A stretch of 64,000 bases of DNA, taken from the IMG/VR virus record IMGVR_UViG_3300042563_002362; one strand, 5' to 3'. Origin of the DNA: a virus. Its lineage: Duplodnaviria > Heunggongvirae > Uroviricota > Caudoviricetes. Below are positions 3,201 to 47,802 of this stretch, one piece after another. The notes below the pieces were generated by a model, which searched no databases, was not told the origin of the DNA, and was given only the letters and a program-made list of their open reading frames with translations. The position numbers were made by a program, and so were the translations under genes. Each line of letters starts with the position of its first letter. The stretch's first letter is position 1.

Positions 3201-5428
3201 CAGCTGTTGGTAAATTAAGTCTCTACCCATCAGCAGATTATTGGTGTGAGACAAATGAAATTGCACCAAATGTTGTTCAAAATGACTCGCTTAAAGATTC
3301 ATTTATAAACGTTCTAACCGGACTGGAAGACGTGCTTGATGTTGACATTCTTGGCACTGAATGGAATAGCTGGACCGCATACTGGGGCGGGAAGCCGGTG
3401 AACTCATACAGAAAGAAGACTCGTAAGAAAATAAGAAAACGTTTTGCTAATCAGATTGAATACCGCAGAGACGGATTAACCACATCAATTGGTACTGATA
3501 ATACGACCGTCGATTTAGGTGAACGTGTGGTTGACCTTTCGGTTCGACCATATATTCGTCGCCGTTACATTTATTTCAGCGCCAAAGCTCTTAAGGCCAA
3601 CACTATTTACTACCCATTCTTTGATGGAGTTGATGTTGGATTTACTTGTTACAATCTTCTAACTGAAACTGAGTTTAATGCAAAAAAGAATGATGACATC
3701 GTAGGACCATATCTACCTGAAATTACACCAGGCAGCGCAACACAAATTAAGTCAAACGAAGACGGTGAATTATTTGGAGTGTTTGTTGTACCAGACTTCG
3801 CGAAGTCCGGCTTACGATTCTTGACAGGTGAACGCGAATTTAAGTTATCAGATTCTCCAAGAAATTCTTCTCCAGAGATAACGAGTTATGCATCAACTAA
3901 CTATGTTGCGTCTGGAATGACTAAGACGGTTCAGTCAGCGATTCTTTCGACGGCCGTTCCCGAACTTGTAAGAACACCGGTTGCTGAAATCAGAATCAAT
4001 AATGTAACTCATACTGTTGCTAACAGTCATGGTGTATGTGGATATCAAGACCCTATTGCGCAGAGCTTTTTAATCGACAATGATGAAGGTATCTTTGCTG
4101 TTGGTATTGACTTATTCTTTTCCAAGAAATCTTCCACAAATACTCCAGTTGAAATTTATATCGTTACATGTGAAAATGGGATGCCTACGCAAAATGTAGT
4201 TCCACTCTCAACGGTGATTAAGAAGACAGCTGATGTGATTGTATCTGACAATCAACTTCCGGGACCTCCGACATATTTTGAATTTGAACAGCCAGTGTAC
4301 CTATCTCCATATCAAGAATATGCAGTCGTTTGTAAGAGTACTGATGTTGATTACAAAGTATTCACTGCAACATTAGGTCAACCCAACATCGCAGATGCTG
4401 GACAGACTATCTCGAAGAATCCATACGGAGGCGTATTCTTTGTCAGTGCAAACTCATCAACATGGACGCCAGAACAAACAGTAGATCTTACATTTACTTT
4501 ATACCGTGCTCAATTTGATGCAAACTCTCAAAAAGAAGTTGTATTTAATACTCCATCAGTACAAACGCTAAGAAGAATCCAAGTTACAAATGCTGGTTCA
4601 GGTTACACGTCAGCGCCAACAGTCACTATTGATGGTAGCGCAACTGCGTATGCAGTTCGAAATTCAAGTGACGGAATCTCTGAAATTGTTATCACGAATC
4701 AAGGTGAAGGCTATACCAACATTCCAACAGTCACAATTGGGACGCCAGGATCGGGCGGTACACAAGCAACAGCAATAGCAGTGATGGCTAATCATCAGGT
4801 CTCTAACTTCGTCTTAGATCAAGATACAGTTGAGCTTGCAATATCAGCTGACATCAAAACATCAGTTACAAATCAAATCACCATTATTGGTAACAATTAT
4901 AAAGTTGAAGCCGACTCTACATATGAAGCATATAAGAGCAAGAAGGCATGGTCCGATGACGAGGATGGTGTGAATCGTAATAATTTGGTAGAGCTTACTT
5001 CTACTCTATATACTACTTCTGATTATATCACTCCAGTCATTGACACTGACCGCCTAAATGTTAAGTTGATTCGCAACAACATCCAAACGGATACAGCAAA
5101 AACTTCTCGCTATGTTACACGTGACATTCAATTAGCCGAAAAGGCAGATCAGCTTGATATTTACTTTGACGCAAATCGACCATCCACTGCGTGCAATCTA
5201 AACGTGTATGTTAAGTATGATGACACTGGGGATTGGATCAGCGTTCCAATATTGAATCCACGATTCATCCCAGTAAACACCGATCCTGATACGTTTTCTG
5301 AAATTCATTATCAGATTAAATCTACACCTAGCGAATTTGGTTCATTTAGAGTTAAGATTGAATTTGTCGGTGCAAATATTGTTGACGTCCCACGTATTAA
5401 AAACTTCAGAGCAATTGCTACCACATGA
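278..5428 (+). CDS. DUF4815 / VrlC-like large virion (baseplate-associated) structural protein
   Basis: N-terminal YMRILFKPGYAVQTRELNQLQS, DRFKNGFVVDNF and C-terminal DVPRIKNFRAIA motifs. Position after gp8 as in T4-like cyanophages. Confidence 0.8.
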   Translation: MAITAYNTTYCDDVNVPDSNGKTPLDKNYMRILFKPGYAVQTRELNQLQSLIQAQLDRLGDSIYQSGKPVIDGSARFDDQLEIYSVDVTTSTPLIDLDENLTDDVFDFTSYNRVTRTTVGVSAELPLRAKVVIVEPLEPPTIDGQYRYKLFVKNTNSETSETQTNISKYSVGDLLSLDNSQDDTVVSISLNVTAVHSSVGAQVAKGVYFIKGCYVPVDEQYVATDIPANSKFTGYAVLKVTEGIATSETDETLLDNARGYLNYSSPGADRYYIDLKLELLSGTDIPSDEKYITILKIVDDKVMVNYAEAEFTGIDDKLAKRTYEESGNYEVNPFPIHIREAYNDLTNGGLYVDNQLLDNGYTNAAAAQEDLICTLDPSVAYVKGYRVQLNSAIPLKFSKARETDSLQNVGISADMGMYVDGIFDSGSDIPDIENVETIYTLKSGTYGAATIGSTRIRSIESNGDGTYRLFLYDIKFTGTSEIHTIHEDTKIVLGSSITFISDTVLKDADVRTALYDLPFSPIKNIEDVQILKKKVFSNVSVTKTNSTVGTLTVVTDTGSAFDKSPTNIIVRVAGLVSGAPSTAIVTYINVTQGTSSNTLTLTLNGLPAGITSVTATVIASVTGTAKRGNKILKTATRTISNPVNGVRTLTGIKHLVSVTGPSGPTYEIVNDGQYDSHYEDATIRITKTNGDTVPVTLTVTYYDFDTSDAVYYDALSYKKTVVSGGITSTVQIPLEDIPSYGTTPLIDVLDFRYVLGASQFSPIDPYSTITFDLEYYIPRIDSVVVNNIGEFSILKGVASTEPRKRSIPSNAMELYTLNIGPYTFGPDDVDIEKIDNKRYTMSNIRSLEKRISNLEYYTTLSLLEKNANDATILDDLGIDRFKNGFVVDNFIGHNVSDTSEGNSVCAVDPDTNECRPAFSTRSLKLKAFSTAQVMPEGWLSGVHDRSITLPYKPLAYIKQSAASESRTIVPLDTATAVGKLSLYPSADYWCETNEIAPNVVQNDSLKDSFINVLTGLEDVLDVDILGTEWNSWTAYWGGKPVNSYRKKTRKKIRKRFANQIEYRRDGLTTSIGTDNTTVDLGERVVDLSVRPYIRRRYIYFSAKALKANTIYYPFFDGVDVGFTCYNLLTETEFNAKKNDDIVGPYLPEITPGSATQIKSNEDGELFGVFVVPDFAKSGLRFLTGEREFKLSDSPRNSSPEITSYASTNYVASGMTKTVQSAILSTAVPELVRTPVAEIRINNVTHTVANSHGVCGYQDPIAQSFLIDNDEGIFAVGIDLFFSKKSSTNTPVEIYIVTCENGMPTQNVVPLSTVIKKTADVIVSDNQLPGPPTYFEFEQPVYLSPYQEYAVVCKSTDVDYKVFTATLGQPNIADAGQTISKNPYGGVFFVSANSSTWTPEQTVDLTFTLYRAQFDANSQKEVVFNTPSVQTLRRIQVTNAGSGYTSAPTVTIDGSATAYAVRNSSDGISEIVITNQGEGYTNIPTVTIGTPGSGGTQATAIAVMANHQVSNFVLDQDTVELAISADIKTSVTNQITIIGNNYKVEADSTYEAYKSKKAWSDDEDGVNRNNLVELTSTLYTTSDYITPVIDTDRLNVKLIRNNIQTDTAKTSRYVTRDIQLAEKADQLDIYFDANRPSTACNLNVYVKYDDTGDWISVPILNPRFIPVNTDPDTFSEIHYQIKSTPSEFGSFRVKIEFVGANIVDVPRIKNFRAIATT

Positions 5429-5661
5429 GTTTAAGTCATATGGTCCCGGTTGATGAGTATCGCGATTTATGTCGCGATACTCAATCCAACTCTATCGTTA
5501 ATACAAATAGAGATGCATATCTTAATGCTAAGATGAAAAAGAAAGCGATTGCTCAACAAAAGTCTGAACATGCACAAATGAAAAATCAGATTGAAGAATT
5601 GATAAAACGATGCGAAGTGTTAGAACATCAAGTATCAAAGTTAGCAGGTATAAATAGTTAA
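5425..5661 (+). CDS. Small coiled-coil hypothetical protein
   Basis: 78 aa, ATGA overlap with the upstream gene, C-terminal heptad-like helix. Similar small genes follow VrlC-like genes. Confidence 0.7.
   Translation: MSLSHMVPVDEYRDLCRDTQSNSIVNTNRDAYLNAKMKKKAIAQQKSEHAQMKNQIEELIKRCEVLEHQVSKLAGINS
5649..5656 (+). promoter_or_regulatory. T4-type late promoter TATAAATA
   Basis: Exact consensus 10 nt upstream of the fibre gene ATG at 5667. Confidence 0.75.
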
Positions 5662-5666
5662 GATAT

Positions 5667-8450
5667 ATGGAAACAATTGATTTTGACCTATTTGGCGCCA
5701 CTGGTGTATTGGGCACCGATACATTTGAGACATGGAGACTAAAGACCAATGGAATAATCGGAAAGGTTAGCACTATCAATTCTTCATATGCTTCACGCAA
5801 TGATGTTTTGTTATTGGATAATTCCGCACAAACGGTATTAGGTAATAAAATTTTCGGTAACGGGATTACGATTGGCGGGGATGGTGGAAATGTCCCTCTT
5901 ACTGTCAACTCTTCAAGTGAACTTTTGCTGACAAACAACTTAGTAATTGGCGAAGATAAGACTTTATCGGCTACCTCGCTAATCTCAAGAAGTGGTGAGC
6001 TTACTCTCAGCGGAAGAACATATCAGTGGCCAACACTCCAGGCAGACCAAATTGAAGGTTACGTATACCATACACCAGGTGGAGATATCGAATTTAAGAG
6101 CCTAACAACAGTCGTTAGAGAAGTTAAGGCCGGCATCGCTCAGTCCGCTTTAGTATCAGCTCAAGAAATTACTCCAGTTGGAACCGTTATTGGTGTTAGA
6201 CTAGATTCAGCTCCTTCAACTGGATTGATTGAAAACACTTGGTTACTATGCGATGGGTCAACAATCGCTAACATGAGCACCGCTTACCCTCTACTATATG
6301 CTGCTTTAGGAAATAGCAATGTTCTTCCGGATTTAAGAACCAAAGTTCTTATGGGATCAAGCGGAGCAACAGGCTTCATTGGATCAACGGGTGCAACAAG
6401 CGCTCCATCCTATTACTCTGTACATTATTACATTAAAGCTAAAAAGGATGCAACGGTTTCGTTTACACTCAATGGTGGAAACGGCGTAAATCTATTAGGT
6501 AAGGACGCAAGTACTTCAATTGATATTTACGGTGGAACGGTTTCGCTAAACGTAGGCTCTGAATTTACGTTTGATATCAATAAAAAGTTGTTACTATCAA
6601 ACGGTGAAATATCTTATACGAAGTTAGCAAATGCGTCGACGACCGCTGCAACTGGATCTATAGGAATTCCTCTTAGAGATACAAATGGTTATGTTCGAGG
6701 AAACGCACCCGGTATCGTAGGACCTACCGCTGAAGGATCAATTCTCGTCAATAAAGCTTATGTTGATAACCTGGCCGAATCAAAAGATCATAAGATCCGA
6801 AGTCTAAATGGAAAAGGTTATAATTCTTACGGTGTGCAACCATACATCGGAGCAGTATTTGTAAATTACGAAAACCGTGTTAAGGCATATGGAGCATCCG
6901 ACGGTTCTCGTGCATTACGATATGGAGATGTTTATAGTAATGCTCTTGGGTACACACTTCCGATATACTCTAAAAATGCTAAGAACGTTTATTCTGATAC
7001 ATATAACACATACATAAAATATGCAGATGATACTGTATATTCATATGGTTTGAATAACAATCGCAAAACGGGCGTTGCTCTCCCATCGGCATCAGCGACA
7101 TACCTCACTTCACCAAACCTCGCGTTTGGCGGTGAAGCAATTGATGAAGTTATTTTAAGTTACTCCACGGCCGAAACGGTATATGCAAAAACAAAGGATG
7201 GTCGCCTATGGGTTGCAGGAAGCAATCGGTATGGTCAACTAGGGCTTGGCTCAAGTGCTCCAGGCGCCGGCACCTCCACAGCTTACCTTCCCCAAGCAAC
7301 AAATCCAGGTGGAAAGACTGTTAGCAAAGCATGGCTAATTGGAGACGGTAACGCGCAGACTGGATATGTTTTAGCAACAGACGATACATTGTGGGCATGT
7401 GGTTATGGCGGTTATGGTCAAATGGGTCGGATCAATATCAGCAATAGTAATCCGACATGGGTCCCAGTCTTAAATCCAGTAACATCTTCTTATACCGGCG
7501 GTACAACTACATATTCTTTAGGCACATACACCTCTACATCTCCACATGGATTGCAAGATTATGACATCGCCAAGTCCAGTACATTTAATTATGTAGTGAA
7601 AGTTTTATCTGCTAACACCTTCCAATTGTGTAATAGTGACCTGCTAGTGCCTATCACATCGTCGACGGCACCACTAACATTTAGTGGGGGCACGCAAATC
7701 CATAATCGAATGACTGGCATAGCCAATGCTGCTTTTGGCGGAACTGGAGGCGAAACATTTGGTTATATTCAAACAGCAGCTGATGGAACTCTATATGCAT
7801 GGGGTTATGGAACATATGGTCAACTAGGAAATGGATCAACATCTCATAAATCAATTCCAACCGCAGTAGTAAAAACAATTGGTTCAACCGTTAAATCCCA
7901 AGCACTATACACTGGATTAGACCACACGGTACACTTTGTTTCAACGGCCGCAACGGGCAATCATTTGTATGCTTGCGGAGCAAATTACTATGGTCAGTTA
8001 GGTATCGGTAAAAATGGAGGAGAACTAAGTCAATTTGAAAAAGTATCGGTTGCGAATCTAAGCGACAGCGGTCTCCAAATTACAGGCAATGATTACTCAG
8101 TACACCAATTCTTTAGTCCTGGAGCCAATTGTAGATTTTGTGTATTTCAATCAGGCAACAATAAGAAATTAACTGCATGGGGTGAAAATCCATACAACAA
8201 GTTAGGAACACATAATAACGCAGCCTCACACAGTGCTCCACAAAACGTGTATGTTGAAAATGATAGTAATGTAACTGACGTACAAACTACAATTATACGT
8301 GTAAGTAGTGGGCACTTAACAACACTTATGACTGCCGACGATAGCCAAGAATACGGCGATTTGCATACGTGTGGTTATCATTATTATAATGTTGGCGCCT
8401 TCCCGAACGACGCAACGGTTCCATTCTTTACAAAATCTAAAAACATTTAA
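5667..8450 (+). CDS. Tail fibre / receptor-binding protein with collar domain and RCC1-like repeats
   Basis: N-terminal [11 protein letters not shown] anchor motif; collar motif PVGTVI...WLLCDGS...LPDLR; repeated GxNxYGQLG and GYGxYGQ(L/M)G RCC1 motifs. Confidence 0.75.
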
Positions 8451-8456
8451 TAAATA
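8448..8456 (+). promoter_or_regulatory. Late promoter variant TAATAAATA
   Basis: ATAAATA core just upstream of ATG 8462. The same variant recurs at 11166, 25604 and 45701. Confidence 0.6.
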
Positions 8457-8461
8457 CCTTT

Positions 8462-11155
8462 ATGTCAGATATCCCAACACGCGTGATTGTAAAATCAAGC
8501 TCAGTCCCTTCAGCGGTACCAACATCTGCGTTTTTGGAACGCGGTGAATTTGCTTTAAATTATGCTGACGGGAAGCTCTATTACAAAGATGAAGCCGATA
8601 ACATTAAGTTCATTGGTCAAGATCTAATTGGCGCAAGCGGCGCAACTGGCGGTAGTAGTGGAGCAACCGGAGCGACAGGAGCAACCGGTCCAACCGGTCT
8701 TCAAGGCACGCAGGGTCCAATTGGAAACACCGGAGGGACTGGAGCAACTGGAGCAACTGGTGTAAGAGGATCAACTGGTCCAACTGGAGCAACTGGAGCG
8801 ACAATCGTATCAGCTGAAATCGGATATGATGGAAATCTTTTCTTAACGCTATCAAATTCTTCAGTCATTTTAGTCGGAGACGTTGTAGGAGCAACTGGCG
8901 CACCTGGAACAAGTATTACCGTAAAAGGTGCAGTCGATATTTTCGACAACCTTCCTTCATCTGGTAATACGCAAGGTGATTTATGGATTGTTGCCTTCGA
9001 CGGGCATGCATGGGTTTGGGGTGGATCTGGCTGGGTTGATGCTGGAAGTATTGTAGGACCTCAAGGCCCATCTGGAGCAACAGGTGCTACCGGGTCCGCT
9101 GGTCCAACCGGCGCGACTGGGCCGCAGGGATTAGTTGGAGCAGCTGGAGCCGCTGGTCTTAACGGATCGGCAGGCGCAACTGGCGCGAGCGGCGTGGGCG
9201 GCGCGACAGGAGCAACCGGTGCAACAGGCGCAATTGGGGCAACCGGAGTAACTGGAGCACAGGGACCTTCTGGTGATGTTGGGCCAACGGGAGCAACCGG
9301 AGCAACCGGAGCAACCGGCGCAACTGGAGTAACTGGAGCAACTGGTGTAAGAGGATCAACTGGTCCAACTGGAGCAACCGGAGCAACCGGCGCAACCGGA
9401 GCAGCTGGAGCAGCTGGAGCAACCGGCGCAAGTGGAGTAATCGGCGCAAGTGGACCGCGTGGAGCAACAGGTGTGAGTGGACTAATTGGGGCAACTGGTA
9501 TTAGTATAGGGACTATTACTGTCCTATATGACGGCACGTTAATCATCCAGTTTAGCAATGGTACAATTCAAACTTTTGGGAGTATCACTGGACCACAAGG
9601 ACCACCTGGAACGGCATTTACACTAAAAGGAAGTGTTGCTAATTTCGCGGCATTAAATACAATACCGTCTCCAGCCGATGGTGATGCATGGATACTCGCG
9701 GATACAAAGGTTGTTTATATTTACACCGCAGCAAATGCACCAGATCCATGGGAGAATGTTGGATTACTACAAGGAGCACAAGGAGCAACAGGGCCGCAAG
9801 GACCAATCGGTTTGTCCGGAATAAACGGAGCAACAGGCGCAACTGGACCACAAGGGGCAACTGGAACAACTGCATGGGGAGATCTTACTGGAGTGCCAGG
9901 TACGTTTACGCCATCTTCACACACACACGTGAGTTCAGCTATCACAGATGCATCTGCATCTCCATCGGCAAATAAGGTTGTTAAATACGACGGAGATGGT
10001 AGAATAACCGCACCTGTATTTGTTAATAGCATAACTTTACGAAATGGTCCTGGGCGCACTTCTCAACTACAATATACTAGTGAAGCTGATAATGTATTGT
10101 ATTTGCCGCACGCCCTCACCCCCAAAACATTAGCGGTGGTATCAGCATCCGACGGTAAAATCTTTCCAGCTGATATTGAGAACGCAACCGTAGAGCGCAC
10201 GCCAAATACTTTAGCGTTAAGAGATAGTTCTGGTATACTAAGCGCAAATTCATATAAGTTAGGCGGGACTAATTCATTAATAGGTGCATCGGGTGCATCA
10301 GGCATTACTTGGACTTTACCTTCATCATCTGGAAATATAGCATTAACCAGTCAATCGAACGGTGAAATTACACCGGCTGATATTGATGGTGTAGATGTTG
10401 AAGCTACAGCTAATACTATTGCATTAAGAAATGAAAACGGCGATTTAACTGTTAATGAGCTGATTGGTAGCACTGCACAAATTGGAACAACTGAATATGA
10501 TGTGTCAGGTGTTGCCGGATATTCTAAATTATGCAACATTGGAAACTTTATTTCTTATACAACATCGGATGGAGCTGATCAATTTCATGATTTCAATCAG
10601 GCACTAGCCATTCACACAAACGATACTAATAGTTCAGTGAATTCAGTGACAGTCAATGCAACCGCGTTCTTCAGTTCGTCTGTTCAAATGAGTGGAAGCG
10701 TGGTGTATAACGGAGGTAGCACTAAAACAATTACTTTCTCTGGCGTACAATTTGCTTTGACGACTCCTTCTAAAAATTCATTAATATCTCAGTTAACTTC
10801 ATCTACACCGACCGATGGAAATTTAGTTAAGTATGGCGCAGGTGGAATCATAACATCAGCGGGTCAGGTTTATTCTAACAGCGCATCCTTCACATATAAC
10901 AACGCTACAGCTAAAACTAATCATCGAACTGCTCTAGGTATCAAAGGAGAAATTGTTACGATCGTTGAAGGTGAAAGTTCTGTGACTGTATCTGCGACCG
11001 GAGTTACCACAGCGACTCCGATTGTTGGAACTCTGATAACAGATGACACTACATTAAAATACATTCGCATTGTGCCCGGGACTGATTCATATGCGGTGCA
11101 TGGAAACGCTGCTGCTACAGCAGAATGTAAGGTGAGTGTTATGATAATCCAGTGA
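8462..11155 (+). CDS. Collagen-like (Gly-X-Thr) tail fibre protein
   Basis: N-terminal [16 protein letters not shown] fibre-head motif; long [12 protein letters not shown] runs; repeated TANTIALR fibre motifs. Confidence 0.8.
8746..9378 (+). repeat. Exact 48-bp direct repeat (8746-8793 and 9331-9378) in the collagen region
   Basis: aactggagcaactggtgtaagaggatcaactggtccaactggagcaac occurs twice. Confidence 0.9.
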
Positions 11156-11180
11156 AGATCTAATCTAATAAATACAGTGT

Positions 11181-11525
11181 ATGGCCCAGTACACTGATAT
11201 CACCATAGATCAAGGCTCAACATATTCAGGTAAGATTCCCGTAGTTGGCGCAAATAAGTTGCCGGTGAATCTCACCGGATTTGCAGCACGTGGTCAAATC
11301 CGTCGATCATATTCATCATTGACATCTGTAAATTTCTCAACAAGTATTCAGGATCCAGAGTCTGGTGAAATTTACATTAACCTTACACCAACTCAAACCG
11401 GGGCAATGAAGCCTGGTCGATATGTCTTTGATGTCGAAATTTACAATGAAAATGAAACTGATGTGATTCGTGTATGCGAAGGTCAAGCCGAAATTACACC
11501 TCGCGCAACTAAGCCAATAGAATAA
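11181..11525 (+). CDS. Fibre-associated adaptor (BppU N-terminal-like) protein
   Basis: IDQGSTY...[15 protein letters not shown]...[10 protein letters not shown] motif, common beside T4-like fibre genes. Late promoter variant at 11166-11174. Confidence 0.65.
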
Positions 11526-11532
11526 GTTAAAC

Positions 11533-14466
11533 ATGCCTGACATCATCGGTGGCCAAATAATATCAACGCACGTAATAGGTGGAACACTTGTTGAACAAGA
11601 TAGTTTTTCATCTACACTAAATAACACTCTTGCACCTGGACCAATTGGGGCGACGGGTCCTCAAGGTTTAGTTGGTTCAACAGGACCAATTGGGTCTACA
11701 GGTTCAACGGGACCAATTGGGGCGACGGGTTCAACAGGACCAATTGGGTCTACAGGTAGCACAGGACCAATTGGGTCTACAGGTTCAACGGGACCAATTG
11801 GGGCGACGGGACCAATTGGGTCTACAGGTAGCACAGGACCAATTGGGGCGACGGGTCCTCAAGGTTTAGTCGGATCAACTGGACCCCAAGGTCTTGTAGG
11901 AGGAAGCGGTGCGACAGGCGCAACAGGACCGGCTGGTGTGGACGCTTTATGGAATTACACTCACGAGTATAATGGTGGTGTAAGTTATTCGGTTGGCGAT
12001 CTCGCAACATACGGCGGCCAACTGTTTTATCGAAAACATGCCAATGGCGGTAACATAGGAGATACTCCATATGATGGTAGTTTATTTTGGGATCTAATTG
12101 CTTCAAGCGGAGCAACAGGAATTCAAGGTCCGCAAGGCTCAACAGGACCCCAAGGAGCAACTGGCAGCACTGGTATTCAAGGTCTTGTAGGAGGAAGCGG
12201 TGCGACAGGCGCAACTGGGCCCCAAGGATCTACAGGAGCAACTGGCCCTACGCCCGAAGGTGTTGTATATGATACGGGTGATCAGAGCATAGGCGGAACA
12301 AAGACGTTTACTTCTGGATTAACAGTTTCTTCTGGCCAAATACTGGTTCCAGTAGGCCCTATTGCATATTCATTCACGGGAGATACGAACACTGGGTTTG
12401 GGTCTCTAGAGGCTGATAACTTTTCTTTCTTCACAGCCGGTGTAGCTAGAATGACCATGGGAACTGGTTCTTTATCAACAACGGTTCCACAGAGAACGTC
12501 GAATGGTTCCGCTGCTTCGCCCGGTTTCGCCTTTTGGGATGATACAAACACCGGTTTGTTTAGAGCGGCGTCAGATGTATTAGGATTTTCAACGGGTGGT
12601 GTTGAGCACATGAGGCTTGCCGAAGATGCTGGGCTTATGGTGGGAATAAATGCTGGATCTCCATCTGCTTGGCTTCATGTTATTGGTACTACACAACAGC
12701 TTCGCATCGGATATAACACTTCCAATTACTGGTCTTCAACAATTAGTTCAACTGGAGGTCTAACAATGCAAGGGGTTGGAACTGGGGGCGCTCTAACGAT
12801 TTCCCCTACCTCTGGGCAAAACATAAACCTCACGCTATCGGGAACTGGAGATTTTGCGGTGAATACCAATCACCTATATGTTGACACAAGTACTGGAAAT
12901 GTCGGTGTCGGGACAGCTACTCCAAATGAAAAATTAACTGTAGCTGGGAATACTTTTGTTACTGGCGGTTTGGGTATCGGCGCTACAAATACAGCAGCTG
13001 GAACTATACAACTTGGATCAAACGGTTCAAACGGCGCACCTTCTATTGGTTGGGAAACTACTGGATTTTATAAAACAGCTGGTAATTCAGTTGTGTTCAC
13101 AAGTTCTGGTGCAAATGCGACCACTTTTACCGCAGGTGGAGGTATTAGCACTTTAGGTAATGTTGCAGGTGGATCAGGGACGGTAAGTGCTCCTTCTCAT
13201 ACATTTACTGCGGAGTCAAGTTTAGGTATGTGGAGGGCTGGTACAAATATACTAGCTTTCTCTACGGCTAGTTCTGAGAGGTTGAGAATTGATGCTAATG
13301 GAAATGTCGGTGTCGGGTCAACTACTCCAAATGAAAAATTAACAGTCTCGGGAAATATATCTGCCACCAATATATACTCCGGTAATATTGTATATAATAC
13401 AGGTGATCAGAGTATTGCTGGCGATAAAACCTTCACAGATGACTTGATTTGTAATGGACAAATAACAGCACCAAACCAAACGGATACCACCGGAAATTCA
13501 GTTTTAACACGTTCGTTAGCAGATGCACGATACATATCAAATGTTGGATTGTTGAGTTTGGCTTCGATTACTCTTGTGGATGTAGCAATGGGGTTTGCTT
13601 CTCAGGCCATAAACACTACATTAAACCAACCAGCTTCAACAGGTGCAACTGGTCTTAGGCTCACTACGACAGTTGGTATGGTTGTAGGTGCAACAATAGC
13701 AACGAATATATTCACTGGAATTCCGCATAATACATACATCACAGCTATAGATGCGGCTGCTGTTTCACCACTGCCAAACGTTACAATTTCTGCTCCGCTA
13801 ATTGCTGATATTCCATCAGGGCAAGTAATCAACACCGTAGTTGTTGCGGGCGGAAGCGCAACGTCAAGCGGCAGGAGCATGTTCGCTTCTACAAGCACAA
13901 CTCTGGGAAGCGAATCTACTTTGTTGTTCGGCGGATTTAATCCATCTCCCTTTGTATATCCGGGAGAAGTTTCTTCCGGTAGTTCTGGGATCAATTTCAA
14001 CCGGAAAACATACTTTGGATTTAAAATAACAACCGCTCACGGAACTAATAATGGGCCAAACGCTGGTGCTGACGGTTGGGTGCGTATGGGTTGTTCGCGT
14101 CAATATCGAAAGTATGGAGCGCCAGAAGCACCAAATAAAGCGGTTGGTATATGGCGTTCAGCTGGATCATATTATGCGTGGGTGATGGATGGAACCACAC
14201 TAAACATAGGCGCAACTCCTATATTCACGACAATTTCAGGATTGAACCCAGTTACACTTGTAGAAATTACAGGTGACGGGCTAGGAAATTTTACATTCCA
14301 TATAAACGGAGTTGCTATACAAACTTTAACGGGAGGACCAACTGGACAATCTGGACAAGAAGGTACTCAATTTGCATTATGCGTAAGAAATCTTACTGGT
14401 GGTGCATCTAGTAATTGCACTATGTCAATCGTGAACGGACAATTCATTTTCACATACTTAGAATAA
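11533..14466 (+). CDS. Second collagen-like tail fibre protein
   Basis: [15 protein letters not shown] collagen runs; duplicated GDQSIxGxKTF and [19 protein letters not shown] fibre modules; exact 38-bp repeat at 11887 and 12178. Confidence 0.8.
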
Positions 14467-14467
14467 T

Positions 14468-14887
14468 ATGATTACAAACAAAACTCAAACACAAAAGGAT
14501 ATTGATCAGATTGAAAAACTAGCTGACAATACAATCAGAGCTTTAAAGGCGGCGGTTTCATCGTTGAACAACTCTTTTGATTATTTTTGGAATTTACCAG
14601 AAGAAAGACTTGTTAATGTGTTGAATTCATTGATAGAATCTGAAGCCTTACAAAGTGTGTTTAATCGGCACGCCGAAACTGCACAACATTTCAATTCGAT
14701 TCTTCAATCTAATGGGGTGTTTGACGTGAGATGTAAGACAGTTGTTCCCAAGGTATTCACAATAGGAGAAAGTGGAGTGACTATAGTCAAACCAATAATT
14801 GAAGAACCGATGGTCGAATACATCTCTACAGACCAACCAATAATTGAAGAACCGGTTGTCGAATACATCCCCACAGACTTAGAGTAA
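14468..14887 (+). CDS. Hypothetical protein, possible fibre assembly chaperone
   Basis: Immediately follows the fibre gene; C-terminal PIIEEPxVEYIxTD duplication. Confidence 0.55.
   Translation: MITNKTQTQKDIDQIEKLADNTIRALKAAVSSLNNSFDYFWNLPEERLVNVLNSLIESEALQSVFNRHAETAQHFNSILQSNGVFDVRCKTVVPKVFTIGESGVTIVKPIIEEPMVEYISTDQPIIEEPVVEYIPTDLE
14791..14878 (+). repeat. Imperfect 45-bp in-frame tandem duplication
   Basis: accaataattgaagaaccg...gaatacatc..acagac at 14791 and 14836. Confidence 0.85.
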
Positions 14888-14901
14888 ATGATGTCAGTCA
14901 T

Positions 14902-15078
14902 TCATGGAGCTTTCGCTTCAAGTAACTCTTTATGTGTAAGATGGAGTCTTCCGGTATTTGCCGTAAAGTAATAACGATCTCCTTCTACTTTATAGATTGT
15001 GATGTGGTCAACTATGCCTAGACCTAAGTCGCTCAGTTGATTTGCAAACTCTTTCGTAATGTTAATGCGTTCATTCAT
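14902..15078 (-). CDS. 58-aa hypothetical protein on the minus strand (below the ORF-track cutoff)
   Basis: Manual translation MNERINITKEFANQLSDLGLGIVDHITIYKVEGDRYYFTANTGRLHLTHKELLEAKAP*. Fills the intergenic gap. Confidence 0.6.
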   Translation of the reverse strand: MNERINITKEFANQLSDLGLGIVDHITIYKVEGDRYYFTANTGRLHLTHKELLEAKAP

Positions 15079-15093
15079 AATGGATATATCTAA

Positions 15094-15786
15094 ATGAAAG
15101 TAGCGCTAGCATTAAGAGGTCATATAAGAGACGGGTTGATCGATGCACGACTTCGTCAATTTGTAGAAAAGCTAATCTCCACGCGACGTGTCGGTACTCT
15201 TGACATATATTGTCATACATGGAAAGAACATGAGGCCAAGAGTTCATACCGGAAATTGGATCATGGTGTAATTGTAAAGGTTACACCGGATTTGATTAAA
15301 CACTACTTTGGTGAAAGCATCCGAGATAAAATAAAGAGCATTGAAATCGCAGATGACTCTAAGTTAGAGCTTAAAGGAAACCTTGAAGGCAAAGTTGCAA
15401 AATCATTATTACCGATTGTTGCATGGAAGCGAATGTGGGCTGGTAAAAGAAAGTTGATTGACACAATTGCAGAGTCAGGTGTACAATATGATAAGGTAAT
15501 CAACACTCGATACGACTTGTTCACTCATCATTTATGTTTAACGAGTGAACCTTTGCTGATGAGAATTTTCAATTCACCTCGCACCTTAAACTTTAAGTAC
15601 CCAATATATACGCGTAATCCTGTCGGATTAGACAATTTTTATGTTGGACAATTGCAACAAATGCAAAAGCTTATCCATTCATTTGATGATAGTTTAGATG
15701 AAATAGTTAAGATATATCCAAATATTGACGTTCAAGAAAAATTAGTTTATGAATATGCAAAAGACAATAGACTTATACTCCGCTAA
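15094..15786 (+). CDS. Putative glycosyltransferase-like protein (phage/giant-virus type)
   Basis: MKVALALRGHIR...DIYCHTW...YDKVINTRYDL pattern resembles viral GT-like families. Adjacent to glf and a GT14 gene. Confidence 0.5.
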   Translation: MKVALALRGHIRDGLIDARLRQFVEKLISTRRVGTLDIYCHTWKEHEAKSSYRKLDHGVIVKVTPDLIKHYFGESIRDKIKSIEIADDSKLELKGNLEGKVAKSLLPIVAWKRMWAGKRKLIDTIAESGVQYDKVINTRYDLFTHHLCLTSEPLLMRIFNSPRTLNFKYPIYTRNPVGLDNFYVGQLQQMQKLIHSFDDSLDEIVKIYPNIDVQEKLVYEYAKDNRLILR

Positions 15787-16774
15787 GATAGTAGGATGTG
15801 GACTTAGCGGAACTGTTGCGGCAGTATGTCTTGCTCGCAAGGGATACATTGTTGACATCTTTGAAACACGATCTCATATTGGTGGAAATTGCTATGATGC
15901 ACCACTTGGTAATGTAAAGTTTCTTCATCAATATGGACCACACATTTTTCATACCGATGACGAAGAGGTCTGGGATTTTGTTAAGGACTATTCTGAATGG
16001 ACTTCATTCAACCTGCAGCCTAAAGGCCAATCCACTCATTATGGATTGATCAGCCTTCCTTACAGTCAAAAAACAATTAAAGAGATTGGTCATGAATTGT
16101 CACAGGAAGAAATTGTTGATACAATCTTTAAAGACTATTCCGAAAAGCAGTGGGGAGTTCCGTTTGATACTATACCAAAGACAATCACTAATCGCATTCC
16201 AAAGACAGCGAATTGTGAAGACCCTACCTGGTTTGAAGGACAAAAGTATCAGTGCATTCCTAAGGATGGTTATACCGCAATGTTTCGGAAGATGCTTGAC
16301 CACCCTAACATACACGTGCATCTTAATTGTAAGCCAAACGAATGGAGGGAACACGCGGCGACATTAACAGTTTACACTGGAAAAGTTGATGCATACTATG
16401 ACTATAAACACGGTCGTTTGCCATACCGCACGCTTGAATTTCATCATCGCAGTGGAGTTCCAGTTGAAGAACATTTTGTTGTTAATCAAATCAATTCACA
16501 TTCACCTTACACTCGAATTTATGATCATAGCCACTTTGATCAGAATCATACTGGGACGACTACGGTTACATGTGAATACTCAAAGGAATGTGGGAACGAC
16601 GATATTCCATACTACCCAATACCGTGGGGAGAAGGTCAATCGATTTATTCAGCATATGAAGAAATGGCTAAGAATGAAAAGGGTGTTATATTTGTGGGCA
16701 GATTAGCCACCTATAAATATCTTGACATGTGGATGGCAATCAAACATGTTTTAATTAAGCTTAAAAATGTCTAA
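15749..16774 (+). CDS. glf: UDP-galactopyranose mutase
   Basis: FAD-binding VGCGLSG, HIGGNCYD, HQYGPHIFHT, YYPIP and GRLATYKYLDM motifs. Confidence 0.93.
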   Translation: MNMQKTIDLYSAKIVGCGLSGTVAAVCLARKGYIVDIFETRSHIGGNCYDAPLGNVKFLHQYGPHIFHTDDEEVWDFVKDYSEWTSFNLQPKGQSTHYGLISLPYSQKTIKEIGHELSQEEIVDTIFKDYSEKQWGVPFDTIPKTITNRIPKTANCEDPTWFEGQKYQCIPKDGYTAMFRKMLDHPNIHVHLNCKPNEWREHAATLTVYTGKVDAYYDYKHGRLPYRTLEFHHRSGVPVEEHFVVNQINSHSPYTRIYDHSHFDQNHTGTTTVTCEYSKECGNDDIPYYPIPWGEGQSIYSAYEEMAKNEKGVIFVGRLATYKYLDMWMAIKHVLIKLKNV

Positions 16775-17582
16775 GAAAATAGCATTCATCGCGCTAACAT
16801 ATAATAAGTTTGAAAAGGAAGGATTGATGAGTCGGTTCTTTGATGAACGGTATTCACATATGTATAACTTATACATTCATTCAAAGGAAAACCTCGATAC
16901 AAATTCGCGTTTTTCTAAACACTGTTTACCTTATAGCGAACGTGTTCATAATACGGCTTGGGGTTATTTCTCGTTAGTTGAAGCAACTGTAAAATTATTA
17001 CGACATGCGCTTAAGGACCAGGATAATGAGAAATTTATTTTGATAAGCGATTCTCATTGCCCACTGTATAATATCAATAAGATGTGTGATATCTTATGGG
17101 AACATGCAGACATAACATGTTTTAATGTATATGACACTGATAAATTAGCAGCTCATCGGTTTTTCAAAATGTTTAAGTTAGAAAAGTCGCGTGCAATTAT
17201 GGTACCAGTTTCTGTGAAGAATGCGATGTTTTTGTCGCAATGGTTTGTATGTACACGTGAAGCAGCAATTGCATTTATAGCAGAGTATGATCGGACTCAT
17301 CAATTATTTGATAAAGACACTGATACTTATGCAGATGAATGTTGGTTTGGCACTATGGCAAACCATTTACAGATACCATGGAAAAATCGATCATTTTGCT
17401 TTGCTGATTGGAATTGGGAAACTGAACAGTATATGATTGATCGCGGGTGTAAGAAGAATCCGCATACATTTGGCGAAGTTACACATGCTGACATTGATAA
17501 ATATCGCGAGGGCGGAAACGTTTTTATTCGCAAGATCCATTCCAGTACTATAGTTGATGAGGATTATCTCTTAAAGCTATAA
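16767..17582 (+). CDS. Core-2/I-branching beta-1,6-GlcNAc transferase family (GT14-like)
   Basis: YNLYIH, TAWGYFSLVEA, NEKFILISDSHCPLY, SQWF and DECWFGT motifs. Confidence 0.8.
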   Translation: MSKKIAFIALTYNKFEKEGLMSRFFDERYSHMYNLYIHSKENLDTNSRFSKHCLPYSERVHNTAWGYFSLVEATVKLLRHALKDQDNEKFILISDSHCPLYNINKMCDILWEHADITCFNVYDTDKLAAHRFFKMFKLEKSRAIMVPVSVKNAMFLSQWFVCTREAAIAFIAEYDRTHQLFDKDTDTYADECWFGTMANHLQIPWKNRSFCFADWNWETEQYMIDRGCKKNPHTFGEVTHADIDKYREGGNVFIRKIHSSTIVDEDYLLKL

Positions 17583-17584
17583 AA

Positions 17585-17592
17585 TATAAATA
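17585..17592 (+). promoter_or_regulatory. Late promoter TATAAATA
   Basis: Exact consensus 5 nt before the holin ATG. Confidence 0.7.
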
Positions 17593-17597
17593 GTAAC

Positions 17598-17930
17598 ATG
17601 GATCAAGAGAAATCGATGATAAAGGCCTTTATTGAAGGAGGTTGGGTTATACCTCTAATAGGAGCTATCGCTATGATAGCACGTATACTATCGTCTGACG
17701 CAAAGCTGACAACCTGGGATCTTGTTAAGAAGATAACGACAGCCGCAATTGCCAGCGGTATTGCTTGGTTTGTTCTTGAACAAACCGACATCAGCAGTTT
17801 ATACAAAGCAATTACATACGGCATCATCGGTGTTATATCGCCTGAGATCATTAGTGGGATTGTAAAGATTGGTCAGCGTTTCTCTAAAAATCCAACTGCA
17901 TTCTTACCTCTAAACAAAGAAGATAAATAA
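17598..17930 (+). CDS. Putative holin (about 3 transmembrane helices)
   Basis: 110 aa, three hydrophobic segments, basic C-terminal tail, late promoter. Confidence 0.55.
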   Translation: MDQEKSMIKAFIEGGWVIPLIGAIAMIARILSSDAKLTTWDLVKKITTAAIASGIAWFVLEQTDISSLYKAITYGIIGVISPEIISGIVKIGQRFSKNPTAFLPLNKEDK

Positions 17931-34509: not shown

Positions 34510-34538
34510 TTTACATGCGCGTGATATTATAATAATAT
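34510..34538 (+). promoter_or_regulatory. Early promoter TTTACA-N17-TAATAT, leaderless gp55 mRNA
   Basis: 6 nt between the -10 box and ATG 34545. Confidence 0.65.
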
Positions 34539-38311: not shown

Positions 38312-38354
38312 CGGGTTTTTACGAAAATACTATGAAAATTTGTGAAAAAATATA

Positions 38355-38383
38355 TTTACATCGGTCCGGTTTCCGTTTATAAT
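38355..38383 (+). promoter_or_regulatory. Early promoter TTTACA-N17-TATAAT with A-rich UP element; leaderless
   Basis: ATG 38390 lies 6 nt after the -10 box. Confidence 0.85.
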
Positions 38384-38389
38384 TCTGTC

Positions 38390-40804
38390 ATGCCGATTGG
38401 AACTACTGTTCAGAAACCACGCGAAGCGCACCAAAGCATGCTCGCGAAACTCCTTGCTAGGGAGAACATTACCGTCCGTTTCGGTAATTATCAAACCGCG
38501 TTCTTTGAGCCAAAAACTCGCGTGTTGGGCATGCCGATGTGGAACGCTGAAAGCAAGCAAGTTTCGGACCTGCTTGTTGGCCACGAAGTTGGCCATGCGC
38601 TTTACACGCCGCAAGACGGAATCGAAAAGTTTCAGAAGCGCTTTCCTGACATTCCGTTTGATATTTGCAATGTGATCGAAGACGTCCGCATTGAGCGAAT
38701 GATTCAGAGTACTTACCCTGGGCTTATCCATTCCTTCCGTGAAGGATACCGCTCCTTCGTTGCAAAGGACCTTTTCAAAATCAACGGTGTCGATCTCGCC
38801 AAGCTGTCGGTCGCGGACCGCATTAACCTGCATGCTAAGGTTGGTCACCTTGTGGATGTTCCGCTTTCTGCTGAGGAACGCGTGATTTACGAATCTGCTT
38901 ATGCAGCCGAAAGCTTCGATGATGTTTTGGAAATTTGTCAGCGGCTTTACAATCTTGTCGAAAAATCTCAGCAGTCTCAAAGCGAGGATGATTCCCCGCA
39001 GCCCAACAAGAGTGGAGACAAGCAAGAACAGATCGGTCAATCCGGTGCATCTAGGCAGAAGCAACCTAGTGAACGTGCCGAAAAAACTGAATCGGAAAAA
39101 TCTGGCGCTGATTCTAAATCTGATGCCGCCGACTCTGACTCTTCGGAATCCGATTCCAATAAGTCCGCCCTAAAGTCAAATACTAAAGGTGATAAGTCGG
39201 AATCCAAGTCGGGCCAAGCCGAAGAATCTAAGTCGGGCCAAGCCGAAGACACTGATGATTCTGGCGATGGTGAAGATGGCGATGATAATCATGTACCAAG
39301 CCCCGATGACAAGAATTCATCGGACGATCAATCCTCTAATGCAGAGAGTCAATATTCTCCGAAAATGTCTGACAACTTTTCGGCTACTCATCAGCGCGAA
39401 TTTGACAAAGGTACTGCACAAATGCAAGAGCGCATTAATACTAATCAGGTTAATGTTCCAACGAGCGCACAAATGCTCCGTGCTGTTGCGCCTCTTAAGA
39501 AGGTGTTGGATTCTCGTCGTGCAGACTCAAAGTACGACGAAATTATGTCCAATCCTCAACTCACCGAGGCATATGGAAAGTTCAAAGATTCAACCAAAAA
39601 GCATGTGCAGGTCCTCATCAAGGAATTTGAACGTCGCAAGGCTGCATATCAATACAGTCGCGCGCGGCGCTCAACAAACGGCACGCTTGACGTAAACCGC
39701 TTGCATTCATACAAGTACGAAGATCAAATTTTCCGTAGCGTGACTACTTTAGCCGAAGCTAAAAATCATGGCATGGCATTTTTCATCGACTATAGCGGGT
39801 CTATGGTTCGCACTCTCGGATCGGTCATTGAGCAGACTATTCAGCTTGTGACCTTCTGTAAGGCAGTGAACATCCCGTTCGTTGTGTATGGCTTCACTAG
39901 CCGCTGTGAAGATACCGGTTCTTGTGAGCCGGTATCGTATGCTCCGGGTATGACGATGGACTTTGACAACGTGAACATCTTTGAGATTCTCAATTCTTCA
40001 CTGAAGAAGATTGAATTTGACAAGTGCATCAAGGAAATGTACGCAATGTCCTGGTATCGCCGCTCGCATGGTACTTACTCATACCACCGCAGCACAACGT
40101 ATGTTCTCTTTGCGTCAAACTACGAAGTCTTCGGTGGAACTCCTCTTGTCGAGACGGTTGTTATTGCAAGCGAATTGGTTAAGCGATTCCGCTCGGCGCA
40201 CAACATCCAGAAGATGAGCACGACGTTCCTTACTGACGGTGACCCTTGCTTTATCCGCATGCATGATAATAATATCGACAGGCTTTTTCGTAAGAATACT
40301 GAGGGTTGGGGTAACGGTTATGAAATGCGGTTCGGTAACGAAATCATTAATTGGACTCATCAATATCCTAAGAACGCGATGGCGGCGGCCATCCGCGCCT
40401 TCCGCACGATTACTCAGAGCACTGTGATTGGCTACTTCATTGCTGACAATCAGAAATCGTTTAAGTCTCACTGTATTGATTCTATCCGCAATGTTGATCG
40501 TAAGATGATCAGCTGGACTGATGGTGCCGAAAAGTTCAAGGGTTGCTTTCGTGAAATTCGTGCAAACGACGGTGTTCTTACCGTTAAGAACGGCGGAGGA
40601 TATGATATGTTCTTTGCATTTGATGGCCGCGACGGTCTTACAATTAAGGACGACGAAGACTCTGACTTTACAACCAAGATGGACATGGACAACCTTGACA
40701 CTGTAGCTGCTCATAATAAGCTTGCTAAGGAATTTACGAAATTCTCCTCTTCTAAGAAGTCCTCGCGGGTATTCGTTCACAAATTTGCCGAAATGATCAG
40801 CTAA
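38390..40804 (+). CDS. HExxH-domain plus VWA protein (CobT-like partner of the MoxR ATPase)
   Basis: HEVGH motif, acidic Ser/Asp linker, MIDAS FFIDYSGSM, GGTPL, FLTDGD. Confidence 0.85.
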   Translation: MPIGTTVQKPREAHQSMLAKLLARENITVRFGNYQTAFFEPKTRVLGMPMWNAESKQVSDLLVGHEVGHALYTPQDGIEKFQKRFPDIPFDICNVIEDVRIERMIQSTYPGLIHSFREGYRSFVAKDLFKINGVDLAKLSVADRINLHAKVGHLVDVPLSAEERVIYESAYAAESFDDVLEICQRLYNLVEKSQQSQSEDDSPQPNKSGDKQEQIGQSGASRQKQPSERAEKTESEKSGADSKSDAADSDSSESDSNKSALKSNTKGDKSESKSGQAEESKSGQAEDTDDSGDGEDGDDNHVPSPDDKNSSDDQSSNAESQYSPKMSDNFSATHQREFDKGTAQMQERINTNQVNVPTSAQMLRAVAPLKKVLDSRRADSKYDEIMSNPQLTEAYGKFKDSTKKHVQVLIKEFERRKAAYQYSRARRSTNGTLDVNRLHSYKYEDQIFRSVTTLAEAKNHGMAFFIDYSGSMVRTLGSVIEQTIQLVTFCKAVNIPFVVYGFTSRCEDTGSCEPVSYAPGMTMDFDNVNIFEILNSSLKKIEFDKCIKEMYAMSWYRRSHGTYSYHRSTTYVLFASNYEVFGGTPLVETVVIASELVKRFRSAHNIQKMSTTFLTDGDPCFIRMHDNNIDRLFRKNTEGWGNGYEMRFGNEIINWTHQYPKNAMAAAIRAFRTITQSTVIGYFIADNQKSFKSHCIDSIRNVDRKMISWTDGAEKFKGCFREIRANDGVLTVKNGGGYDMFFAFDGRDGLTIKDDEDSDFTTKMDMDNLDTVAAHNKLAKEFTKFSSSKKSSRVFVHKFAEMIS
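39200..39247 (+). repeat. 24-bp in-frame tandem duplication (ESKSGQAE x2)
   Basis: The two copies differ at one synonymous base (tcc/tct). Confidence 0.85.
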
Positions 40805-40840
40805 CCGTGAAAATACTATGAAAATTTATGAAAAAAGTTA

Positions 40841-40869
40841 TTTACATTCCATGAAATTTGGTTTATAAT
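40841..40869 (+). promoter_or_regulatory. Early promoter TTTACA-N17-TATAAT
   Basis: Preceded by gaaaatactatgaaaattt, as at 38323. Confidence 0.85.
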
Positions 40870-40898
40870 AAATCCGTACCAATTGAATAACCCACTAT

Positions 40899-44008: not shown

Positions 44009-44017
44009 AATAATAGC

Positions 44018-47757: not shown

Positions 47758-47793
47758 AATGGGAGGTTTGTTATTTACAAGCCTCCCATTTTT
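47758..47793 (+). terminator. Stem-loop terminator overlapping the gp43 -35 box
   Basis: aatgggaggtttgt-tattt-acaagcctcccatt followed by Ts. Confidence 0.8.
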
Positions 47794-47802
47794 GATTATA
47801 AT
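47774..47802 (+). promoter_or_regulatory. Early promoter TTTACA-N17-TATAAT, leaderless gp43 mRNA
   Basis: ATG 47809 lies 6 nt after the -10 box. Confidence 0.85.

Follow-up and report, generated by a model that had tools for sequence, protein, structure and literature searches.

The 64,000-nucleotide stretch of viral DNA analyzed here (IMG/VR record IMGVR_UViG_3300042563_002362; the whole stretch is called the window below) derives from a divergent T4-like myophage and carries, at the end of its string of tail-fiber genes, three overlapping genes (positions 15094–17582) whose products would form one cytoplasmic unit that builds a sugar chain. Glf, a uridine diphosphate (UDP)-galactopyranose mutase, would convert host UDP-galactopyranose to UDP-galactofuranose (UDP-Galf); P0003, a glycosyltransferase (GT) with a predicted GT-A fold, would move galactofuranose (Galf) to an acceptor; and P0005, a predicted member of family GT14, would add or start a second sugar. 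That Glf makes UDP-Galf, P0003 transfers it and the GT14 enzyme extends or starts the chain is very probable. The acceptor proposed is the Thr/Ser-rich collagen stalks of the two fibers encoded upstream, where the glycan would stabilize or shield a triple helix that is poor in proline and free of hydroxyproline; the chance that virion proteins or fibers are the acceptor is put somewhat below even.

The three cassette enzymes

An earlier reading made from the sequence alone had listed two collagen-like fiber genes, a GT-like gene, glf and a GT14 gene, and all five are found on the + strand at the positions it gave. Profile searches, structural models and comparison of loci identify the products of the last three and their coupling:

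15094–15786, + strand: P0003, 230 residues, soluble, isoelectric point 9.4, GT-A-fold glycosyltransferase by predicted structure
15749–16774, + strand: Glf, UDP-galactopyranose mutase (PF03275), 341 residues, overlapping P0003 by 38 nucleotides
16767–17582, + strand: P0005, GT14 (PF02485), 271 residues, no membrane anchor, overlapping Glf by 8 nucleotides

No membrane segment is predicted in P0003, Glf or the GT14 enzyme, and megablast of the cassette against deposited phage genomes yields no match.

The identity of glf is confirmed by PF03275, which matches over the full domain at E 3e-59, and by similarity to the solved mutases 4MO2, 1WAM and 1I8T at E 1e-60; the FAD-binding motif GxGxxG is present as GCGLSG at residues 16–21 (PF13450, E 2e-18). 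The protein is about 25 residues shorter than the solved bacterial enzymes, with the gap in the helical domain, and this short form is common to all cassette Glf proteins (332–341 residues). Owing to the deletion, the NCBIfam equivalog TIGR00031 matches in two stretches and scores 273.5 bits, below its cut-off of 303.75, so a related UDP-sugar may be used instead. By a hand count on the HMMER alignment to 1WAM, the probable equivalents of the substrate-binding residues Arg174 (NRIP), Trp160, Tyr155, Arg280 (YRTL), Tyr314 (PYTRI), Tyr349 and Asp351 (YKYLDM; Klebsiella pneumoniae numbering) are kept, and the probable equivalent of Tyr185 is Trp in the phage protein. A copy of the late-promoter motif TATAAATA within glf, at 16712, 47 nucleotides before the GT14 start and conserved in the related contig L077, was dropped as a promoter candidate because it is in frame and encodes Tyr322-Lys323-Tyr324 of the conserved YKYLDM motif.

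P0003, the GT-like gene of the sequence-only reading, finds nothing at E 0.01 in Pfam, NCBIfam, PHROGs or PDB sequences, the sole trace of a named family being DUF7796, with an 11% share in one neighboring Atlas cluster. Its model (predicted local distance difference test, pLDDT, 91) is a single Rossmann-like alpha/beta/alpha domain of GT-A type. VIA-align places it nearest ArnC, GtrB, mannosylglycerate synthase and hyaluronan synthases at Z 11.0–10.4, scores that same-fold nucleotidyltransferases also reach, and Foldseek matches it to mannosylglycerate synthase and glycogenin at E 1e-4. The family invariants are R8-G9-H10-x-R12, W43, E47, W111-K-R-M-W115, R139-x-D141 and D180-N181. At the position of the DXD motif, after the fourth strand, only R139-Y-D141 is invariant, with Asp141 ending the strand, and D180-N181 forms a second invariant acidic pair.

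A family profile built from 30 homologues was searched against 1.84 billion representatives of clusters at 50% identity and matched 563 clusters at E 1e-3, of which 249 reached E 1e-30 or better; the Atlas neighbors of P0003 are 89–100% viral. A tblastn search of 50,697 deposited phage genomes finds no relative, and a scan of 185,579 prokaryote genomes with patterns from the P0003 alignment gives 29 pattern matches of which none is a relative, although this negative is weak evidence of absence because the scan rests on two short patterns. P0003 therefore appears, on these searches, to define a virus-restricted GT-A family. Its distant members adjoin GT10-like genes in giant-virus contigs, namely L047, which carries the hallmark Rpb2, and L044, from a giant-virus metagenome-assembled genome. 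In contig L046 a P0003 homologue and glf lie in a cluster with GT90, pyruvyl transferase, GT2/GT92, sulfotransferase and GT25 genes and a further GT-A enzyme, a gene set that suggests machinery for a decorated polysaccharide and not for base modification. Fusion partners within the family include GT61, GT41, GT92, Caps_synth, a mannosyltransferase and a ricin lectin domain. In P0271, encoded on a giant-virus-like contig of sample 3300010885 beside a eukaryote-type protein kinase, a P0003 domain is fused to GT14. The P0003 domains on such contigs (P0271, L047 and L044) indicate that the family spans phages and Nucleocytoviricota.

GlfT1/GlfT2 and WbbI are bacterial galactofuranosyltransferases of GT-A fold that use UDP-Galf. 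P0003 resembles them in its fold and in the proposed use of UDP-Galf from the adjacent Glf. Unlike them, P0003 has no detectable Pfam or NCBIfam similarity and a single invariant Asp at the DXD position, and its family is seen just in phages and giant-virus-like contigs. A literature search found no virus-encoded galactofuranosyltransferase, and we know of none.

The GT14 call of the sequence-only reading is borne out by Pfam Branch PF02485 (E 1.4e-24; 87.5 bits against a gathering score of 23.4; profile positions 1–248 of 250) and by the fold. In the P0005 model (pLDDT 92) the top 18 Foldseek matches in the PDB are all human xylosyltransferase 1 (XT1) or murine core-2 GlcNAc-transferase (C2GnT-L), at E 3e-11 to 7e-10, and the next family follows at 1e-5, a gap of 10^5. 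By profile and model, P0005 is a true GT14 member. GT14 enzymes have a metal-independent site with a catalytic Glu in a D-E motif and basic residues in place of DXD. Across 19 homologues D190-E191 and R255-K256 do not vary, and judged by motif these pairs may correspond to Glu320 and Lys401 of C2GnT-L; the GT14-type motifs SDSH-PL, SQWF-C-R, DE-WF and F-RK are kept in P0005. A tblastn search for P0005 in the 50,697 phage genomes finds no match, and a PDB sequence search finds no meaningful one.

GT14 is otherwise known from eukaryotic glycosylation of proteins and O-glycans; here it is phage-encoded. P0005 shares the Pfam family and the fold of the eukaryotic enzymes XT1 and C2GnT-L (PDB 6EJ7-6EJE, 2GAK, 3OTK; template modeling score 0.64–0.69 by query) but lacks their signal anchor, stem and Xylo_C domain, being a cytoplasmic protein of 271 residues. 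The solved relatives branch O-glycans or, in the case of XT1, xylosylate Ser directly before Gly.

Coupling of Glf, P0003 and GT14

A P0003-family gene adjoins glf in about 45 loci, which show two gene orders and represent at least three genomic contexts. Among the long family members (n = 34) are two fusions with a complete Glf in opposite orders: P0266, an intact open reading frame (ORF) on two contigs, has the P0003 domain first and Glf second, and P0244 begins with Glf and ends with the P0003 domain. The conserved adjacency, seen in several orders, together with natural fusions is the best computational evidence available that P0003 uses the mutase product. From it we infer donor use, and P0003 is a strong candidate galactofuranosyltransferase; by the same gene-level evidence, the GT14 enzyme is a candidate to act on the same product as P0003.

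In a tree of Glf proteins, the loci that bear GT14, all with the order P0003-Glf-GT14, form one branch with support 95/89. This clade comprises four phages: the window and its strains, L003/L077, L002/L011 and L010. In the majority of the tree GT14 is missing and the order is Glf-P0003-like, with or without a second paralogue. L024, sister to the GT14 clade, has P0003-Glf at a place far from the fibers, with uvsW on one side and gp47/gp46 on the other.

Both architectures, with and without GT14, occupy the same slot, in which a small reverse-strand ORF is followed by the cassette, a holin-like gene and gp13. The borders in the window are:

14902–15078, − strand: conserved reverse ORF, 58 residues, the upstream border in most related loci by locus comparison
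17585–17930, + strand: holin-like membrane protein, 110 residues, the downstream border, with its own late promoter TATAAATA 5 nucleotides before the ATG

In T4 the holin gene t comes after gene 38. Within the GT14 clade the start codon of P0003 lies 15 nucleotides from that of the reverse ORF; in the majority architecture a motif close to that of the late promoter, CATAAATA, lies ahead of the reverse ORF on the strand of that ORF. Across phages the slot is a hot spot of sugar-enzyme genes: in L006 GT14 is present alone, and a sulfotransferase lies nearby, while L008 additionally encodes epimerases together with one deacetylase of PIG-L type and one polysaccharide deacetylase.

Collagen-like fibers as candidate acceptors

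The fiber gene string immediately upstream of the slot contains:

5667–8450, + strand: RCC1/WD40-like structural protein, 927 residues, first gene of the string (RCC1-type PHROG matches; Pfam RCC1/WD40_RLD and Collar in homologues)
8462–11155, + strand: collagen-like fiber 1, P0001, 897 residues (Pfam Collagen E 3e-29, PHROG tail-fiber families; C-terminal part non-collagen)
11181–11525, + strand: LtfC-like tail-fiber assembly protein between the two fibers, 114 residues (phrog_1084 E 6e-27, phrog_3304 E 7e-23, weak Pfam LtfC)
11533–14466, + strand: collagen-like fiber 2, P0002, 977 residues (Pfam Collagen E 1.4e-16, two BppL_N motifs, PHROG tail-fiber families)
14468–14887, + strand: acidic protein, 139 residues, isoelectric point 4.6, always after the variable fiber, a possible fiber chaperone

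The two fibers with long Gly-X-Thr runs described earlier are both present, as are the strings GATGATGPT and GSTGPIGST, and both proteins show the long uninterrupted Gly-X-Y runs of collagen repeat proteins (PF01391). In P0001 these runs occupy residues 64–114, 199–348 and 438–470 (17, 50 and 11 triplets, 78 in total), with Thr at Y in 42 of the 78 triplets and Thr or Ser in 65%; in P0002 they occupy residues 36–137 and 193–240 (34 and 16 triplets, 50 in total), with Thr at Y in 26 of 50 and Thr or Ser in 56%. Pro is never at Y in the runs of either protein. Every Y-position Ser or Thr in a collagen repeat precedes Gly, which makes the stalks the best candidate acceptors; by analogy, these Ser/Thr-Gly sites may be likened to the Ser-Gly sites xylosylated by XT1. 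The placement in a late structural region also stands, with RCC1-like and LtfC-like genes upstream of the cassette and holin-like, gp13, gp14, gp15, terminase, sheath and portal genes downstream.

The second fiber (11533–14466) differs among strains that share an identical P0003 and flanks of 95–100% identity (L051, L052–L060). It is a protein of 977 residues in the window and is represented by 1283 plus 362 residues in L051, the distal part being exchanged. On sequence comparison this strain-variable fiber represents swapping of receptor-binding modules beside an invariant cassette.

All four phages that carry both GT14 and Glf have Thr/Ser-rich collagen fibers just upstream, with a Thr plus Ser fraction at Y of 0.56–0.84, and among phages with a Glf cassette GT14 is confined to this Thr/Ser-rich-collagen clade. 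The GT14-less relatives G003 and G004 have collagen ORFs elsewhere; these are rich in charge, with Glu at X and with Gln, Arg or Lys at Y, and their Thr plus Ser fraction at Y is 0.07–0.15. Contig L003 had been taken for a GT14 phage without collagen, and this was withdrawn when the extended locus showed its 616-residue gene to lie inside a frame of 1539 residues with 251 triplets just upstream. In L077, whose GT14 is 71% identical, this frame (5358–9977, stop to stop, 251 Gly-X-Y triplets) was split by the gene caller into small genes and the 616-residue gene; it may be one giant collagen fiber or a fiber with unusual starts.

The proposed co-occurrence of glf plus GT14 with Gly-X-Thr fibers thus holds for GT14, in four of four phages of one clade, and not for the core Glf/GT-A pair, which lacks nearby collagen in about 30 loci, in G002 and in L024. 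The wider idea that the module is tied to collagen fibers fails for this core pair, which occurs independently of them.

Promoters and timing

Two promoter types can be read in the window and its relatives. Late genes have TATAAATA 5–11 nucleotides before the ATG. In the early and middle class, of which gp55, the clamp loader, DNA polymerase and primase are examples, the motif is TTTACA-N17-TAtAAT, which in both the window and G002 ends 6–11 nucleotides before the ATG. The sites are:

5649–5656, + strand: T4-type late promoter motif TATAAATA, 10 nucleotides before the gene for the 927-residue protein, the sole canonical promoter found upstream of the fiber-to-cassette string
34510–34538, 38355–38383, 43983–44011, 47774–47802, 54642–54671 and 57350–57378: early/middle promoter sites with the TTTACA-N17-TAtAAT motif, its end exactly 7 nucleotides before the ATG

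Early and late promoters lie so near the ATG that the transcripts would have little or no leader. This is unusual for T4-like phages and may hint at the host.

No early-type promoter is found before P0003 in the window, whereas replication genes have one 6–8 nucleotides before the ATG, and none precedes the cassette across the GT14 clade. We infer from these motifs that the window cassette is co-transcribed late with the fibers. The lack of an early promoter of its own and the place at the end of the late fiber string favor decoration of virion proteins.

Weighing the acceptor

Several observations weigh against glycosylation of the fibers. The late timing is read from absent promoter motifs only. 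The reverse-strand ORF separates the fibers from the cassette. About 30 majority-type Glf plus GT-A loci have no collagen ORF in the available flanks (up to 10 kb upstream), and G002, a genome of 173.8 kb and 97% completeness with a Glf plus GT-A pair, has no Collagen match anywhere. The link between GT14 and Thr-rich collagen counts as one event and not as independent support, since the GT14-bearing loci form one clade, and a GT14 homologue occurs in the same slot in L006 without collagen. Thr-rich Gly-X-Y repeats are, moreover, common in phage fibers without glycosyltransferases. All 12 distinct upstream regions of the majority type have an early-type promoter, or a one-base variant of it, 8 nucleotides before the glf ATG, so that by this motif the majority-type glf is an early island among late genes. 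The phage population itself encodes, by sequence, a T4-type deoxycytidine monophosphate (dCMP) hydroxymethylase, which marks it as a 5-hydroxymethylcytosine (hmC) phage. A phage-encoded mutase has also been proposed to supply UDP-Galf for DNA glycosylation in Pootjesviridae such as Rhizobium phage RL38J1 (PMC13326640, 2026).

The last three points belong to an explanation absent from the sequence-only reading, namely that the cassette glycosylates hmC in the phage DNA, with Galf added by P0003 and a second sugar by the GT14 enzyme, and so protects the genome from host nucleases. Analogues of such a modification would be T-even glucosylation and, in phage RL38J1, the mono- to tri-hexosyl cytosines; we regard this explanation as unlikely. 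The hydroxymethylase is a T4 gp42 homologue of 235 residues (E 1e-85 to 1B49) on contig L066, about 17 kb beyond the window end, a link that runs through a chain of contig overlaps and not through the window record: L062 matches the window at 100% identity over 52,491–64,000, L061 does so at 99–100%, and L066 matches L061 at 100% over 6.8 kb. Among the best 120 of 6,996 gp42 homologues, none lies on a contig of about 199 kb. The homologue has Asp at both diagnostic positions (D169/D177), the hmC type under the rule of PMC13326640. A gp42 gene is also present in G002 (97% complete) and in contig L004; no match is found in G005–G009, fragmentary relatives that are uninformative on this point. 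In GT14-less relatives the glf promoter, TTTACA-N17-TAnAAT 8 nucleotides before the ATG, is of the same type as those of DNA polymerase, clamp loader and gp55. The place of the L024 pair between uvsW and gp47/gp46, the glf of Aeromonas phage AS-gz in the early region beside motA, the basic isoelectric point of P0003 (9.4) and the lack of PF09198, PF11440, PF00535 and PF00534 matches in G002 fit such a role as well.

The gp42-uvsX slot of this phage population, however, already holds its own early-promoter cluster of GT-B, SDR and C5-methylase genes:

L066:7351–14215, about 17–24 kb beyond the window 3' end: probable DNA-hypermodification cluster in the gp42-uvsX slot

Between gp42 and uvsX lie reading frames for proteins of 162 and 295 residues, a GT-B enzyme of 462 residues (PF13524), an SDR epimerase/reductase, a C5-cytosine methylase and a 320-residue protein similar to the 'transglycosylase' of PDB 7XPR (E 5e-19), and two early promoters lie 6–7 nucleotides before ATGs. 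Judged by gene content this cluster is probably the DNA-hypermodification locus of the phage, which leaves no need for the Glf cassette to act on DNA. On the T4 map the gp42-uvsX slot is the position of beta-gt. In G002 the slot encodes a 342-residue protein that, by language-model features, resembles the protein clusters of T4 beta-glucosyltransferase, which is a lead only.

The cassette enzymes themselves also argue against DNA. Neither P0003 nor the GT14 enzyme has a homologue in the 50,697 deposited phage genomes, among which are all known DNA-glycosylating phages; neither matches PF11440 or PF09198. Those two families are absent from relatives G001–G004, but equally from the control genomes. 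The window cassette is without an early promoter, no GT14 enzyme is known to act on DNA, and the distant P0003 members lie in giant-virus contigs and in clusters for sulfated or pyruvylated glycans or are joined in one protein to glycan-transferase or lectin domains. The likeness to the T4 alpha/beta-glucosyltransferases and the Pootjesviridae pathway (PMC13326640) thus extends to the dCMP hydroxymethylase, the phage Glf and the early-type glf promoter of relatives, whereas the DNA transferases are of GT-B type and those of the cassette are GT-A (a new family and GT14), have no homologue in deposited phages and coexist with a separate GT-B cluster in the gp42-uvsX slot. A glycan or protein acceptor is favored by the giant-virus GT10 neighbors, the L046 cluster, the fusions to glycan transferases and lectin, and the action of GT14 on proteins and O-glycans; it is favored over DNA by the sulfotransferase, deacetylases and epimerases of the slot and by the separate early cluster beside the hydroxymethylase.

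Such an acceptor might also belong to the host. The enzymes would then add Galf side groups to a lipid-linked O-antigen, capsule, cell-wall polysaccharide or S-layer glycan and so block superinfection or the adsorption of progeny to lysing cells, an explanation that we consider distinctly unlikely. Galf is a sugar typical of bacterial surfaces, the early promoter of most relatives would suit a role in exclusion, and the epimerases, deacetylases and sulfotransferase of the slot in relatives are as in surface-glycan loci. Sullivan is said to have proposed in 2005 that cyanophage surface-polysaccharide genes alter the host surface. Genes of the GDP (guanosine diphosphate)-fucose pathway are found in the T4-like cyanophage P-SSM2 (PMC10611076). 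The cassette proteins, however, have no membrane segment, and the only membrane protein nearby is the holin-like one, under its own late promoter; Pfam scans of the neighbors show none of the GtrA, GtrB and GtrC families, and the neighborhood contains no flippase or Wzx/Wzy-type partner. The phage is lytic, and the window cassette looks late. The P0003 family was not found in the pattern scan of 185,579 prokaryote genomes and appears virus-restricted, which would be surprising had the enzyme been borrowed from a surface-glycan pathway of the host. An acceptor other than virion, hmC DNA and host envelope is very unlikely.

For fiber glycosylation, which is preferred here, the branched Galf glycan of the sequence-only reading retains the gene identities, the late setting and the Galf-making cassette, and its specific support is limited to one clade-level association. 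In its full form the proposal is that a T4-like phage O-glycosylates Thr and Ser of its own Gly-X-Thr stalks with a branched Galf glycan, a virus-only galactofuranosyltransferase family supplying the Galf step and the GT14 enzyme starting or branching at Ser/Thr-Gly, and that the sugars replace hydroxyproline or charge pairs and shield the fibers; in this form it is possible at best and on balance doubtful.

Comparison with known virion and collagen glycosylation

Mycobacteriophages Che8, Corndog and Myrna likewise have phage glycosyltransferases among structural genes, with O-glycans proposed on the virion surface (Freeman et al. 2023, cited in PMC12619734); there the acceptors are C-terminal extensions of capsid and tail-tube subunits, as shown by mass spectrometry. 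Here, unlike in those phages, the candidate acceptors are collagen-like fibers of a T4-like myophage, the enzymes are unrelated (a new GT-A family, GT14 and a mutase), and the system is predicted from genes. BclA of Bacillus anthracis is likewise a glycosylated Gly-X-Thr surface collagen but carries rhamnose-anthrose chains made by host operons. Mimivirus L230 is virus-encoded and acts on viral collagen-like proteins but hydroxylates Lys and adds glucose (PMC9614988). In contrast to both systems, lysyl hydroxylase, rhamnose and anthrose genes are lacking here and the predicted sugar is Galf. A large 2022 review of giant-virus glycans does not mention galactofuranose, the mutase or GT14.

Phage context and neighboring genes

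The portal protein is about 52% identical to the portals of Methylophilales phage Melnitz, Pelagibacter phage Mosig and cyanomyophages. T4 gene order is kept through the fibers, holin-like gene, gp13, gp14, gp15, terminase, sheath, tube, portal, prohead genes and major head protein and on through uvsW, gp55, gp47/46, clamp loader and DNA polymerase. A Joint Genome Institute contig of 199,678 bp is 100% identical to the window over 14.7 kb, cassette included. The stretch is present in lake-water metagenomes of many studies, in at least 18 runs, with no RNA run among those listed, and the phage is widespread and common in lake metagenomes.

At 38342–42107 the window encodes a protein of 820 residues (PHROG 'peptidase') followed by a CobS-like ATPase of 402 residues (PHROG 'porphyrin biosynthesis'), a type of gene pair common in marine T4-like phages. 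Just beyond the window 3' end (L061:10576–16444) lie a gene similar to PRPP (phosphoribosyl pyrophosphate) synthetase, NAMPT, a gene resembling nucleoside deoxyribosyltransferase, and NADAR, a set of NAD-salvage type.

Implications

The enzyme side of this finding is more interesting than could be seen from the sequence-only reading, and fiber glycosylation is put forward as a hypothesis. A sizeable P0003 family with synteny and fusions to the mutase constitutes a specific, testable prediction of a galactofuranosyltransferase. If the full proposal is true, a Galf glycoconjugate would be new for any virus, and a glycosylated fiber would be new for the T4 superfamily. Stabilization of collagen by glycosylated Thr is known from the cuticle collagen of a deep-sea worm, and if the fibers are the target they would be a viral example of it. 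The phage carries at least two separate sets of sugar transferases, which makes it a good system in which to study how glycosylation is divided among DNA, virion and host.

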